Part shown: positions 9,952 to 21,895 of the stretch, piece after piece
How the letters are laid out: every line of letters starts with the position of its first letter
Position numbering within the stretch: position 1 is the first letter of the stretch
IMG/VR virus record: IMGVR_UViG_3300043185_000099
Location: 1 to 64,000 of that record
Length of the DNA: 64,000 nucleotides
DNA from: a virus
Reading direction: 5' to 3' (one strand)
Program-made: the position numbers and the translations under genes
Notes under the pieces: generated by a model
Seen by the model: only the letters and a program-made list of their open reading frames with translations
Database searches by the model: none
What the model was told of the DNA's origin: nothing

Positions 9952-10437
9952 GTGATTGTCTACATCGTCGGTGATGCCACGAGGCCCCAGGGCGACGGCC
10001 TGAAGGTCGTCGCCCACTGTCTCTCGGACACGGGAGCCTGGGGCGCAGGGTTCGTCCTGGCCGTGTCTCGACGATGGCCAAGGCCTGAAGCAGAGTATCG
10101 GCGCTGGTATCGCGAGAAACGGGCAATGTTCCCTCGCATGCTCGGCTGTGTCCAACTCGTCCCCGTCGAACATGACATCTGGATCGCCAACCTCCTTGGA
10201 CAACGAGGAGTCGGGAGAGGACAAGACGGACGACCACCAGTCAGGTACGAGGCTCTCGGGAAGGGTTTCTCTCTGATCGCGGACTTCGCCGAGGCTCATC
10301 CAGAACGTCGTGTATCGGTCCATGCGCCCCGGCTGGGCTGTGGTCTCGCTGGCGGGCGTTGGGAAGAGGTAGAGCCGATTCTGGAACAGACTCTGGTACG
10401 ACGAGGCATCTCTGTCACGGTGTACGATCTCCCGTGA
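9952..10437 (+). CDS. macro domain (TARG1/DarG-like) ADP-ribose processing protein
   Basis: GDAT, AHC, WGAGFV and PRLGCGLAGGRW motifs. Confidence 0.88.
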   Translation: MIVYIVGDATRPQGDGLKVVAHCLSDTGAWGAGFVLAVSRRWPRPEAEYRRWYREKRAMFPRMLGCVQLVPVEHDIWIANLLGQRGVGRGQDGRPPVRYEALGKGFSLIADFAEAHPERRVSVHAPRLGCGLAGGRWEEVEPILEQTLVRRGISVTVYDLP

Positions 10438-11518
10438 ATTTGACGATTCTTCGGCACCACTCCAGGAAATCCTCGATCGACAAGACGTTCCTCATCATGT
10501 TGACGTCCTTGTGAACCCACTGGACATTGTCCGGTCGATAGCCTGTTTCACGGTCGAGGCGATCTAGGGAGGCCGTTCGTCTTCGTCCTCTCAGTTCCAA
10601 GGGAAGCCCAGTCAACGCGCAGTGACCTTGTTGTTTTCGGTATATCTGCCAAGCCTCGGCCGCGGAGAGATCGACCGAGAGGCCGCGACGGCGCGCGCGG
10701 CGAAGAACCCTGGACCACAAGGTGGCCGAGACCTCACCTGACCCCTTGAACTGCAGACATCCACACGATGTCGACTTGTTCTGCACGAGAGAGTCGAACC
10801 GAACCTCCTTCTCCACGCCACACGCGCATCGACATCGGGCCGTGTAAGAGAGACCAGAGGGCGTCCGAGTACGCCATCGTTCTAGCACAGTCCATCTCCC
10901 GTAGCGTGTCTTTCGCGGCATGGGAATGCTCTCTCGAGACGACCCCTTTGCTCGCGGGTTCTCTGCGCAGACGGGACAATCCGGACTGACCACGAGGCCA
11001 CACAGGAACAGAAATCTCGACGGTGTCAAACGTCCCTTCATCAGGTTCACGGTCTTGTGGAGCCACTGAACGTTCGTGATCAGGTAGCCGCGGTCATTGT
11101 CTATGCGGTCGAGCGAGGCGGTCCCTTCCTTGAATCCGAGGGCTTGACCAGACAACGCACAGATGCCTTCCTGAGCTTGAAACAGATCCCAAGCATCCTC
11201 GATGTTCAACTTGAAGTCGTGTCCGCGTTCTCGCGCTCCGCGACCAAGACCAGACCAGTACTTGGCTGGGATGTCTCCGGCTCCGCGCCAGCTCGCGGAT
11301 CGAGATCCACGGAGATCTCTCGTGACCTCGCGATTTAGACACCCACAACTTCGGGTGGCACCTCGCTTGATCGAGGCGACCAACACTTCGATTTCCCTCC
11401 CGCAATCGCAGCGACATTGGGCAACGTAGCGGCGCACTCCCACCCTTCGGCGCCTCAACACAACCAAGCGTCCGAACCTACGGCCGTCCAAGTTCTCCTG
11501 GGAGTAGATGCGGGGCAT
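10415..11518 (-). CDS. HNH-type homing endonuclease, internally duplicated
   Basis: Two copies of CxCxCG...SCGC...CALSG/TG...ASLDRID/LD...NVQW.HK.VN.M. Confidence 0.8.
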   Translation of the reverse strand: MPRIYSQENLDGRRFGRLVVLRRRRVGVRRYVAQCRCDCGREIEVLVASIKRGATRSCGCLNREVTRDLRGSRSASWRGAGDIPAKYWSGLGRGARERGHDFKLNIEDAWDLFQAQEGICALSGQALGFKEGTASLDRIDNDRGYLITNVQWLHKTVNLMKGRLTPSRFLFLCGLVVSPDCPVCAENPRAKGSSRESIPMPRKTRYGRWTVLERWRTRTPSGLSYTARCRCACGVEKEVRFDSLVQNKSTSCGCLQFKGSGEVSATLWSRVLRRARRRGLSVDLSAAEAWQIYRKQQGHCALTGLPLELRGRRRTASLDRLDRETGYRPDNVQWVHKDVNMMRNVLSIEDFLEWCRRIVKFTGDRTP

Positions 11519-11587
11519 GTTTGGACAGACCAGTTTACCACGGGAGGGTTTTCGTATCAAGAATCGTTCTCTAAGAGGGTCCTGGAC

Positions 11588-11878
11588 ATGGCCGAGTCGA
11601 GCAAGAGCACGTCACGTGTAGACAGAGCGTGGGGAGTCTCGGATCCCGTAGCGGCCGCGGTGGGCTACGTCGTGACGATCTTGGCAGTGTTCGGGGTCTT
11701 CAAGAACCTGGGCCTCGATCCCGATCAGGTAGCCACTCTAGGCGGCGCCCTAGGGGGTCTTGTGGCGACCCTCCGTGCCCTCCATGAGAGGAGCAAGAAG
11801 CGCCAGATCACGTCTCTCCTGGAAGAGTTGGAGCGCCATCGAGCATCCTCCTCTCACAGCGGCAGCTCGCCGAAGTAA
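11588..11878 (+). CDS. holin-like small membrane protein
   Basis: Two hydrophobic segments followed by a basic/charged C-terminus. Confidence 0.5.
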   Translation: MAESSKSTSRVDRAWGVSDPVAAAVGYVVTILAVFGVFKNLGLDPDQVATLGGALGGLVATLRALHERSKKRQITSLLEELERHRASSSHSGSSPK

Positions 11879-11895
11879 GATTTCTCCGCCAGCGC

Positions 11896-11924
11896 TTGAC
11901 GTCGTCGAGAAAGCCCGCTAGAGT
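11896..11924 (+). promoter_or_regulatory. sigma70-type promoter
   Basis: TTGACG-17 nt-TAGAGT upstream of the Thr-rich leader and tRNA-Thr cluster. Confidence 0.7.
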
Positions 11925-11970
11925 GCTCCCGTCCCTGTCCTTGGCAGGCGGGACGACCGAGAACCACGCC

Positions 11971-12066
11971 ATGAGACGCACCACGACAACCGAGACCACC
12001 GTGACGGCCAAGCCGGCCGCCGCGATGTGGTCGTGCGGCCCCGATACGGCCGCAATCGCGTGTTGA
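11971..12066 (+). CDS. Thr-rich leader peptide (31 aa, MRRTTTTETTVTAKPAAAMWSCGPDTAAIAC)
   Basis: 7 Thr codons within codons 4-12 (ACC, ACG, ACA). Lies between a promoter and three tRNA-Thr genes; resembles thrL-type leaders. Confidence 0.7.
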   Translation: MRRTTTTETTVTAKPAAAMWSCGPDTAAIAC

Positions 12067-12140
12067 GCGTCTCCCCGGTGTAGTTCCGTCCAACAGACAA
12101 CACCGGGGAGACCCGCAGCACGCGAGCCGACCGGCTAGGC
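12007..12140 (+). promoter_or_regulatory. attenuator-like alternative RNA structures
   Basis: Stems: GTCTCCCCGGTGT/ACACCGGGGAGAC (12069-81/12100-12); CGCGTGTTG/CAGCACGCG competing with the CGCGAT..TGCGGCC/GGCCGCA..ATCGCG hairpin; GCCAAGCCGG/CCGGCTAGGC. Confidence 0.5.
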
Positions 12141-12151
12141 ATCATGCCCTC

Positions 12152-12219
12152 GCTGACGTAGCACAGTGGCAGTGCACCGCCCTCGTACTGCGGGGACAAG
12201 AGTTCGATTCTCGGCTCCA
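12152..12219 (+). pseudogene. tRNA-Thr(CGT), apparently with a ~6-nt deletion in the T-stem/acceptor 3' strand
   Basis: GCTGACG..D-arm..CCGCC CT CGT AC TGCGG..AAGAG TTCGATT CTC[..]GGC T CCA. Confidence 0.65.
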
Positions 12220-12238
12220 CGAACCAGGAGAAACCATC

Positions 12239-12311
12239 GCCGGCGAAGCTCAAGAGGAAGAGCGCCTGACTTGTAATCAGGAGGAAGCGGGTTCGACTCC
12301 CGTAGCCGGCT
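12239..12311 (+). tRNA. tRNA-Thr(TGT)
   Basis: Cloverleaf with anticodon arm CCTGA CT TGT AA TCAGG and T-loop GGTTCGACTCC. Confidence 0.85.
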
Positions 12312-12317
12312 CCCGAC

Positions 12318-12393
12318 GCTACCGTAGCTCAGTCGGGAGAGCGCAAACTTGGTAAGTCTGAGGTCGCCGGTTCGATCCCGGCCGGTAGCTCCA
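12318..12393 (+). tRNA. tRNA-Thr(GGT)
   Basis: Acceptor stem GCTACCG/CGGTAGC, anticodon arm CAAAC TT GGT AA GTCTG, encoded CCA. Confidence 0.9.
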
Positions 12394-12420
12394 AGCGACA
12401 AGACGAGGAAAGGAAGACAG

Positions 12421-12537
12421 ATGCCACGCACGCTCACAGGACCACTCGATCAGGACTCCGACGAGGACGACGATCGTTCGCCGCGTTGGGGTAGTGGTCA
12501 TCCTGTCCGGTTGTCTCCCGGACGACACCGCGGATGA
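12421..12537 (+). CDS. Asp-rich leader ORF (MPRTLTGPLDQDSDEDDDR...) reading into tRNA-Asp
   Basis: Purine-rich Shine-Dalgarno (GAGGAAAGGAAG). 6 Asp codons in 9 codons, ending 5 nt before the tRNA-Asp 5' end. Confidence 0.65.
   Translation: MPRTLTGPLDQDSDEDDDRSPRWGSGHPVRLSPGRHRG
12480..12530 (+). pseudogene. tRNA-Asp(GTC), 5' two-thirds, truncated at the T-stem
   Basis: GCCGCGT TG GGGTAGTGGTCATCCT G TCCGG TT GTC TC CCGGA CGAC ACC, then foreign sequence. Confidence 0.65.
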
Positions 12538-12598
12538 GCAGGTCGCGAAGCGGCGCCGGGAAGAGCACGCACGCGTCGTAGACCACGATGAACGCCAC
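12530..12598 (-). pseudogene. PIN-domain toxin N-terminal fragment
   Basis: GTG start, AFIVVYDACVLFPAPLRDLLIR. Typical start of PIN proteins paired with excisionase-like HTH genes; the similarity stops at the tRNA-Asp junction. Confidence 0.65.
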
Positions 12599-12613
12599 GA
12601 CGCGACCTGCCTG

Positions 12614-13066
12614 TCAGTACCCTAGGTCGTGCTTCTGCGCCTCGGCGGCGAGTTCTTCGAGGGCGGCCTTCGCCTCGACTTCTTCGCGGCGCTTGTACTC
12701 GAGGACATCCGCCATCTTGATCCGACGGTGGGTGCCCACCTTCCGGTGCGGGATCTTTCCCTCCTCGAGCAGGCGCACGACGTGAGGCCGGGAGACGTTC
12801 AGGAACTCGGCCGCCTGCTGGGTGGTCAGCTCCGCGTGCTGCGGAAGGATGGCGACCAGGCTCCCGTTCGCCATGTGCCCGAGCACCTCGACGAGAAGGC
12901 GCAGGGCGTCCGGCGGCAAGGTCACGGTGACCTCGTGCCCATTGTCCTCGGAACGCAGGGTCACGGCCCGTGGGGCCCGGGCCCGCTTGCTCAGGGGCTC
13001 GAGCCCGCGCAGGGCCGAGCGGGCGATCTCGGCGGCGTCCTTTGCGGGTGCAGGGGCGGCGTGCAT
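12614..13066 (-). CDS. excisionase-family HTH DNA-binding protein (putative antitoxin)
   Basis: LTTQQAAEFLNVSRPHVVRLLEEGKIPHRKVGTHRRI. Confidence 0.85.
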   Translation of the reverse strand: MHAAPAPAKDAAEIARSALRGLEPLSKRARAPRAVTLRSEDNGHEVTVTLPPDALRLLVEVLGHMANGSLVAILPQHAELTTQQAAEFLNVSRPHVVRLLEEGKIPHRKVGTHRRIKMADVLEYKRREEVEAKAALEELAAEAQKHDLGY

Positions 13067-15774: not shown

Positions 15775-15849
15775 TGCCTCGGGTTGGAGTTGAACCAACA
15801 CCTCCTGGTCTTCAGCCAGGCGCTTACGGACCGCGTCAGCTTCCGAGGC
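15775..15849 (-). tRNA. tRNA-Phe(GAA)
   Basis: Acceptor GCCTCGG/CCGAGGC, anticodon arm CCTGG CT GAA GA CCAGG, T-arm GTTGG TTCAACT CCAAC; followed by CCG rather than CCA. Confidence 0.85.
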
Positions 15850-21610: not shown

Positions 21611-21733
21611 ATGACTCGCGAGACCCGTGTCCGGGAAGCCATCGACCAGGTGCTCAGCACCCGGGGCGATCTCCTGCGCCGTCTCGCCGAGGTCGAAGCC
21701 GCCGAGAAACGGATCGGGAAGCACAAGCGTTAG
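21611..21733 (+). CDS. 40-aa leader ORF ending EKRIGKHKR
   Basis: All 3 Lys codons are in the last 8 codons; followed by a hairpin and tRNA(CTT). Confidence 0.5.
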   Translation: MTRETRVREAIDQVLSTRGDLLRRLAEVEAAEKRIGKHKR

Positions 21734-21782: not shown

Positions 21783-21868
21783 GGGCCGGTCGCACAGTCT
21801 GGTTGGTGTAGCGGACTCTTAATCCGCCGGACGCAAGTCCCTCGTGGGTTCAAATCCCTCCCGGCTCA
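21783..21868 (+). tRNA. tRNA with Lys anticodon CTT and a long variable arm
   Basis: Acceptor GGGCCGG/CCGGCTC, anticodon arm GCGGA CT CTT AA TCCGC, V-arm GGAC GCAA GTCC, T-arm GTGGG TTCAAAT CCCTC. Confidence 0.8.
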
Positions 21869-21895
21869 CCGCCCTCCACAGGTTCACGGAATACC

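Follow-up and report, generated by a model that had tools for sequence, protein, structure and literature searches.

A putative leader mini-gene rich in the codons of downstream tRNAs precedes tRNA operons of giant phages and myxobacteria

The window analysed in this study is the first 64 kb (64,000 nucleotides) of the virus record IMGVR_UViG_3300043185_000099 of IMG/VR (151,955 bp; 62% G+C; completeness according to CheckV, 29%). The record carries genes for a DNA polymerase, helicases, NAD ligase, GroEL, and methyltransferases; the polymerase shares 55% identity with its counterpart in a phage record of 618,736 bp, referred to here as G001. On the plus strand of the window, a short Thr-rich open reading frame (ORF) is followed by a cluster of tRNA-Thr genes, and this leader and tRNA region is bounded by a 153-aa ORF (11417-11878) and a convergent helix-turn-helix (HTH) gene (12614-13066). 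An original prediction, made from the sequence alone, had described the region as a thrL-like leader with alternative hairpins upstream of all three tRNA-Thr isoacceptors. Our analysis indicates that the element is probably the 5' leader of a tRNA operon, containing a translated mini-gene written in the codons read by the tRNAs of that operon.

The leader is preceded by a sigma-70-like promoter (TTGACG-17-TAGAGT, 11896-11924, plus strand), which was recognized by a site scan (2 sites found against 0.1 expected) and in family alignments, the -35 sequence CTTGAC being invariant across the leader family. The -35 element lies within an imperfect palindrome, CTTGAC N4-6 GTCAGAG in many members and CTTGACGTCGTCGAG in the window (about 11893-11910), which might serve a DNA-binding regulator as an operator. 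Per-sequence folds indicated a hairpin, P0 (approximately 11931-11954), at the transcript's 5' end, with the stem GTCCC...GGGAC and a conserved loop CCTTGGCAGG. The leader ORF (11971-12066) consists of 31 codons from the ATG at 11971 to the TGA at 12064-12066 and encodes the peptide MRRTTTTETTVTAKPAAAMWSCGPDTAAIAC. As originally described, it contains 8 Thr codons (ACC four times, ACG three times, and ACA once), and its Thr run occupies codons 4-12 (11980-12006). Only four 10-codon windows with at least 7 Thr were found in all six frames of the 152-kb contig. Folding placed two hairpins within the ORF: P1 (11994-12032), whose 5' arm consists of the distal Thr codons (GACCACCGTGACGGCC) and whose 3' arm includes GTGGTC, and P2 (12034-12054), for which both-sided changes were seen in 7 pairs (helices 3 and 4). 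The long stem P3-P4 (12057-12124) was confirmed to be highly stable (-44.5 kcal/mol, z -8.7, reached by 0 of 200 shuffles); its 5' arm (CGCGTGTTGAGCG) holds the last codons and the TGA, and no U tract follows it. Two small hairpins predicted by folding, AGCCGACCGGCT and GGCATCATGCC (12125-12149), separate P3 from the first tRNA.

Two of the three predicted tRNA-Thr isoacceptors, tRNA-Thr(UGU) (12239-12313, 57 bits) and tRNA-Thr(GGU) (12318-12393, 63 bits), are sound. The third, the CGU copy at 12152-12219, proved to be a pseudogene: it scored 27.6 bits against an Rfam cut-off of 29, its acceptor and T stems are broken, and ARAGORN made no call. Compared with its intact orthologue in L184, a near-identical metagenome locus (86% identity over 11791-12486), a deletion has removed 6 nt from its T stem and the 3' strand of its acceptor stem. 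Past the Thr tRNAs, the L184 operon continues with Asp, Ala, Ala, Trp, Cys, Val, Ile, Met, and Met, whereas the similarity of the window ends at 12486, within a degenerate tRNA-Asp(GUC)-like remnant (12474-12558) called by neither ARAGORN nor Rfam. The window therefore holds an intact leader in front of an eroded operon. Every one of the last 7 leader codons in the window (D T A A I A C) is cognate to tRNAs of the intact L184 operon. In the eroded copy the matched codons are mainly those of Thr; in the intact sister operon they extend to those of Asp, Ala, Trp, Cys, Val, Ile, and Met.

In G001, a matching leader was found: the promoter is the same, the ORF (MKRSTTNIATTATSMVVVAVVRPIMGDTTPC) again has 31 codons, and its stop codon is overlapped by a stem. 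The tRNAs that follow are Thr(UGU), Thr(CGU), Thr(GGU), Thr, Asp (two), and Val (three). A search pattern was then built from three conserved blocks, by which TTGGCAGG, GCCATGA, and GTGTTGAG were forced. It recovered a third viral copy and 68 metagenome loci, from which 43 leaders passed the filter, 35 of them distinct. The metagenome leaders have 29-32 codons, start with M-K/R-R/K-S/T-T-T, and contain 7-10 Thr, and tRNA-Thr is the first gene after them wherever the contig continues. The ORF, its frame, the Thr run, and the position before tRNA-Thr were kept in the 35 distinct leaders, which bears out the proposal that the leader codons match the downstream tRNAs. The exact hairpin arms were absent elsewhere in the viral contigs and in the window, indicating that they do not belong to a repeat family. 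With the bacterial copies described below, the leader scaffold amounts to about 60 copies in giant phages and bacterial chromosomes. One further locus, L206, lies on a contig (JBDHAB010000014.1) of a metagenome-assembled genome assigned to Gemmatimonadota; it combines a phage-type leader with Thr/Asp/Val and Lys tRNA clusters arranged as in G001, and is probably a phage contig binned with a bacterial genome.

Judged by its sequence features, the leader ORF behaves as a coding sequence. Frame 0 of the leaders contained no stop codon in any member, and ACN codons made up 25.4% of frame 0 against 2.3% and 4.4% of the other two frames, the share of Thr being 6.6% of codons genome-wide. Over the leaders, the Thr codons were divided into ACC (90), ACG (101), ACA (80), and ACT (4). 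Between the conserved start context CGCCATGA and the UGA, 15 distinct spacings ranging from 69 to 183 nt occurred in the wider family, all of them keeping the two in frame, apart from three apparent exceptions that were motif-picking errors or a weak match. In many phage members the peptide is Thr-rich at its start, hydrophobic in the middle, and ends in Cys. The ORF is likely to be translated in vivo.

The exact pattern also matched the chromosome of the cultured myxobacterium Paraliomyxa miuraensis SMH-27-4, beside A/V-type ATPase genes; no close homologue of the phage polymerase was found in this genome. Its chromosome has two copies of the scaffold (L196/L213, NZ_JAOVZF010000164.1, G003:C141:273222-274310; and a second at G003:C131:131198-132211), which stand before a Thr/Asp/Val/Met operon and before a Met/Phe/Lys/Asn operon. 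A covariance model of the leader, R1, was matched by 32 of the 73 genomes from the order to which Paraliomyxa belongs, as many as five copies being present in a single genome, and by none of 150 other genomes sampled across the phylum, in each of which few candidates were scored. The mini-genes of this group differ with the tRNAs that they precede. The leader MNRSTTDSHHHMRDHVVFVHSMHDICPC, which is rich in His, is followed by Asp, Asp, and His tRNAs; MERFTTTTPMNTERMFGMGFMFGTC by Met and Phe; MIRFTNMMYMYTPGARFMCVMAPC by Met, Met, Phe, Met, Phe, and Met; MKRSANITTDCWSDTIVLDDCAR by Asp and Cys; MIRSTTVTTTTTITTTVVVRGIIVC by Thr, Val, Ile, and Met; and MKRTTTKTHTTTNPVAMGSFTASNSRKFGSC by Thr, Phe, Asn, Lys, and Lys.

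This correspondence was examined for 27 non-redundant leaders by permuting their operons 20000 times. Of the leader residues, a fraction of 0.421 had a cognate tRNA encoded in the operon that follows, compared with 0.295 +/- 0.015 after permutation; this value was reached in 0 of the 20000 permutations. With Thr excluded, the values were 0.362 and 0.223, respectively, again with 0 of 20000. Leader counts of the residues T, V, I, M, D, A, K, N, F, H, and W were 1.5 to 4 times higher where the operon contained the corresponding tRNA. As far as can be read from these comparisons of sequence, the composition of the leader peptide tracks the tRNA content of the operon.

The RNA structure of the leader was examined by projecting per-sequence folds of 32 leaders onto an unguided MAFFT alignment. 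These projected folds were used instead of RNAalifold, which gave a poor consensus over the whole alignment because variable loops were misaligned. In the projected helices, 74.5% of the cells were paired, as against 37-46% when the partners were slid by 1-3 columns. The covariation score was 0.200, compared with at most 0.096 when slid, and was reached by 0 of 500 shuffles. The apical helix of P1 was 91% paired, with both-sided changes in 4 of 5 pairs, and the basal stem of P0 kept its pairing through at least 10 different stem sequences, some bacterial members having a UUCG loop as a replacement. In every member folded, the ORF ends within the 5' strand of P3, which holds its last codons together with the stop codon. 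P3 closes a three-way junction in most relatives. Stacked on a small hairpin, P4b, P3 resembles an acceptor/T-arm minihelix. The leader family is thus marked by a codon-matched ORF, a conserved frame, RNA helices, and a stop codon inside P3. Three further candidate features were considered and dropped: a sigma-54 promoter in TTGGCAGG, for its inconsistent spacing to a GC element, and a D-arm mimic in the 3' arm of P3 as well as P5 as a terminator, for want of consistent support.

The manner in which such a leader might act on its operon is suggested by the position of the stop codon. Because its location in the 5' arm of P3 is the only constant coupling, and no hairpin switch was seen, we propose that the coupling is exerted through the position of the ribosome. 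The geometry implies that P3 would have to be opened for the ribosome to reach the UGA. The time spent reading the cognate codons would decide whether the ribosome occupies the 5' strand of P3, or has yet to reach it, at the time when RNA polymerase synthesizes the 3' strand. The speed of decoding would thus govern how P3-P4 folds during transcription and, by that route, how much tRNA is produced. The folding could be read out by factor-dependent pausing or termination, by an RNA element that acts on the polymerase, or through the processing or stability of the precursor. The original prediction had pointed to Rho access or to folding and processing of the precursor. As to the sign of the presumed regulation of tRNA output, we lean slightly toward product feedback, in which slow decoding would yield more tRNA, over a positive coupling of the pyrBI type. 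A wider interpretation, to which we give somewhat less than even weight, is that the element is a dedicated modular device of one myxobacterial order and of the giant phages that have the scaffold, in which the mini-gene has been rewritten for each operon so that each tRNA set would autoregulate its own supply. Tentative to the same degree is the remaining part of this interpretation, namely that the mini-gene is coupled to a conserved, non-terminator three-way junction acting on the transcribing polymerase or on maturation of the precursor.

Several observations weigh against this account of the leader. A terminator scan of the plus strand of the window found none, and no run of U follows P3-P4 in the window or in most members. 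When the window leader was folded at equilibrium with a ribosome on the early or late Thr codons, the pairing probability of P3 was 0.85, 0.85, and 0.85 in the free, late-stall, and early-stall states; masking of the stop region revealed no recurrent alternative structure. The cognate codons are located in two places, the N-terminal run in the 5' arm of P1 and the last 7 or so codons beside P3, and delays far upstream of P3 and next to it should have opposite effects under simple occlusion. Only a weak Shine-Dalgarno sequence (GAGAA or GGAA) lies upstream, at a distance of about 8 nt. The invariance of TTGGCAGG, GCCATGA, and GTGTTGAG in the metagenome set was forced by the search pattern and is not independent evidence. 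In the permutation tests of composition, relatedness among the leaders was only partly removed, and operons cut by contig ends add noise. Furthermore, runs of Val or Ala, together with Trp, are encoded by the strand opposite the Thr codons of P1; since such residues may result from RNA pairing, part of the match in composition is confounded with structure.

The original prediction had placed the control in alternative hairpins, as in a classical trp/thr-type attenuator: a ribosome stalled on the Thr run would free GTGGTCGTG (12027-12035), and a hairpin at 12021-12060 would then compete through CGCG with the stem at 12057-12124. The components were confirmed, in that GTGGTCGTG pairs with GACCAC in the minimum free energy fold (helix 11994-12032), P1 and the 12021-12060 hairpin (-23.8 kcal/mol, z -3.7) are both foldable, and the latter appears in the constrained fold with an early stall. 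However, the CGCG overlap amounts to only 4 bp against a stem of -44.5 kcal/mol, whose pairing did not differ among the three states. In most homologues P3 likewise stayed equally paired when the ribosome was placed on the Thr run, a few phage members alone showing that stalling favours it, and no T run follows the stem in the window, as had been noted, or in most members of the family. The switch is thereby largely refuted and an attenuator of this kind is very unlikely, while the description of a translated-type, codon-matched leader holds. An arrangement closer to the geometry observed is that of the pyrBI and pyrE attenuators, in which the ribosome occludes the hairpin. Applied here, it would have the opposite sign to product feedback: a factor-requiring pause or termination hairpin, P3-P4, would form when the ribosome lags and be prevented only by a ribosome that has passed through every cognate codon to the stop, and the tRNA operon would be transcribed on fast reading and shut down when charged tRNA is scarce, amounting to a local stringent control. 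It is in keeping with such an arrangement that stable-RNA synthesis drops on amino-acid starvation, that the 5' arm of the stem takes in the last codons and the stop in all members, and that constrained folding gave no antiterminator alternative. On the other hand, the stem is followed by G+C-rich sequence and not by a U tract, the elaborate and sequence-conserved three-way junction exceeds the needs of a pause hairpin, and product feedback explains the codon match to the operon's own products more naturally. We consequently regard positive control of this type as rather unlikely, though worth serious consideration.

Two other explanations dispense with decoding altogether. The leader might be purely structural and untranslated, serving as a stabilizer, as a processing signal for RNase III, RNase P, or RNase E, or as a stable small RNA transcribed with the tRNAs, with the ORF and its Thr run as by-products of the helices. 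The strongly covarying helices do overlap the ORF, and the stack of P3 on P4b does look like an acceptor/T-arm minihelix; the tRNA cluster of T4 also encodes stable RNAs of unknown function. Nevertheless, this explanation is improbable in view of the frame kept over 15 ORF lengths, a frame 0 that is never interrupted, and a composition that still tracks the tRNAs in leaders whose helices are different, such as the His-, Met/Phe-, and Asp/Cys-rich ones. The product might otherwise be a functional small peptide, such as a membrane peptide or a Thr/Cys-rich precursor of a ribosomally synthesized and post-translationally modified peptide, linked to tRNA genes by chance. The Thr-rich start, hydrophobic middle, and terminal Cys of many phage members would suit such a peptide, but the sequence is not conserved beyond M-K/N-R-S/T-T, some members have Arg in place of the terminal Cys, the composition follows the downstream tRNAs, and no genes for modifying enzymes were seen beside the window copy, so that we give this explanation hardly any credence.

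Compared with known systems, the leader resembles E. coli thrL (RF00506) and the multivalent ilv leaders in having a short ORF just after the promoter, runs of regulatory codons, overlapping hairpins, and several amino acids sensed. The N-terminus of thrL (MKRISTTITTT...) is also resembled by that of the window leader. In contrast, thrL and the ilv leaders control biosynthetic enzymes, whereas the window leader precedes tRNA genes, has neither a U-tract terminator nor a 2:3 antiterminator, and belongs to an RNA scaffold family of its own. A cmscan of 11700-12700 with E values up to 10 gave no match to RF00506, and the Rfam search of the leader region gave no match to the T-box (RF00230) and none of the leader to any Rfam family. 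Of the features of a classical attenuator, the cognate codon run is present (8 of 31 codons for Thr), and mutually exclusive hairpins and an intrinsic terminator are absent; for lack of a U tract, P3-P4 is not an intrinsic terminator. The leader has in common with pyrBI and pyrE that the ORF enters the 5' arm of the decisive hairpin, the TGA at 12064-12066 lying inside the stem 12057-12124 and likewise in all members folded, and that the position of the ribosome, not an alternative hairpin, would decide the folding. It differs from them in that pyrBI and pyrE have canonical U-tract terminators and sense low UTP by polymerase pausing, not a codon-specific delay of the ribosome. T-box riboswitches are alike in that a structured 5' leader couples the supply of a particular charged tRNA to expression of a translation-related gene, but they bind uncharged tRNA directly, have no ORF, and control aminoacyl-tRNA synthetase or amino-acid genes. 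Unlike in T-box pairing, the loop UGGC of P0 in the window leader does not match the UCCA 3' end of the downstream tRNAs; T-box-like pairing of this loop with the tRNA 3' end was dropped as a candidate because the discriminator is U.

Short leaders obeying the same codon rule, with 10-48 codons and sequences unrelated to the window leader, were found before other tRNA clusters of G001 and give separate evidence for the rule. The ORF MALWLQQQQI precedes two tRNA-Gln genes and MERNDNNKNFWCNWCPQGEEIG (..FWCNWC..) precedes Trp-Cys tRNAs, each being followed by a canonical hairpin and U-tract terminator. MFVMKRKHKL precedes a Lys tRNA, and ..VEREREGEPCLRGENN (..EREREGE..ENN) precedes three Glu and two Asn tRNAs; in this last case the end of the ORF forms the 5' arm of the following long hairpin, which has a short UUUCU tail. 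Permutation of the labels of these leaders never reached the observed match (0 of 20000). Short cognate leaders were noted at the G001 loci L023, L018, L016, L019, and L021, including those of Pro/Arg/Leu and Arg/Ser clusters. They are like the window leader in being mini-ORFs in the codons of downstream tRNAs, and differ from it in their unrelated sequence, much shorter length, and, for the Gln and Trp-Cys ones, U-tract terminators; the window scaffold is a distinct and larger family that bacterial chromosomes also carry.

No obvious cognate leader was seen for the other tRNAs of the window (His, minus-strand Phe-like, and suppressor-like). A 40-codon ORF (21611-21733) upstream of tRNA-Lys(CUU) (21783-21870) ends in ..EKRIGKHKR-TAG-CCCG, resembling the end of the 10-codon Lys leader of G001, MFVMKRKHKL-TAG-CCCG; this tRNA-Lys is 86-88 nt long, which is unusual for tRNA-Lys. 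The tRNA at 15775-15849 on the minus strand scored 57 bits with Rfam and was missed by ARAGORN; its anticodon loop reads GAA (Phe) by eye, and no cognate leader was seen upstream. Outside the window, on the minus strand of the same contig (G000, 125820-125895), lies a tRNA of 60 bits with the anticodon loop CUCUACA, to which ARAGORN assigned an anticodon of 4 bases, 'ctac'. A CUA amber suppressor is one candidate identity for it, which would hint at recoding of TAG in part of the phage.

Among the neighbouring genes, the convergent gene at 12614-13066 (minus strand), just past the tRNA-Asp remnant, encodes an excisionase-like protein (Pfam HTH_17). The break of the operon within the tRNA-Asp remnant, with an excisionase-like gene beyond it, suggests that the tRNA-Asp gene was the site of a rearrangement or insertion. 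A gene at 10415-11560 (minus strand), a short way upstream of the leader region, encodes a 381-aa protein with two tandem HNH/endonuclease VII-like domains, and in a relative, L079, an ORF lies between two Thr tRNAs of the operon. There are hints that homing nucleases help to reshuffle tRNA operons. The flanking proteins, namely the product of the 153-aa ORF and the HTH protein, had no useful relatives among the viral contigs.

In textbook accounts, tRNA genes are controlled at the promoter level, by growth rate and stringent control, and a literature search found no description of cis-acting leader-peptide control of tRNA operons. The evidence given here exceeds a single locus, since regulatory codons co-vary with the downstream tRNAs over some 60 copies of one homologous scaffold. 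The sharing of this scaffold links uncultured giant phages to a likely host group, the myxobacteria, and P. miuraensis SMH-27-4, a cultured organism with two copies, offers a tractable experimental system. The conserved read-out domain, which is not a terminator, may hide a new coupling of translation to transcription or to RNA maturation. Taken together, these findings suggest that the large tRNA arsenals of phages are regulated and not merely carried; if the proposed mechanism is true, it would represent a new class of decoding-speed control of stable-RNA genes, by which phages would supply tRNAs on demand.

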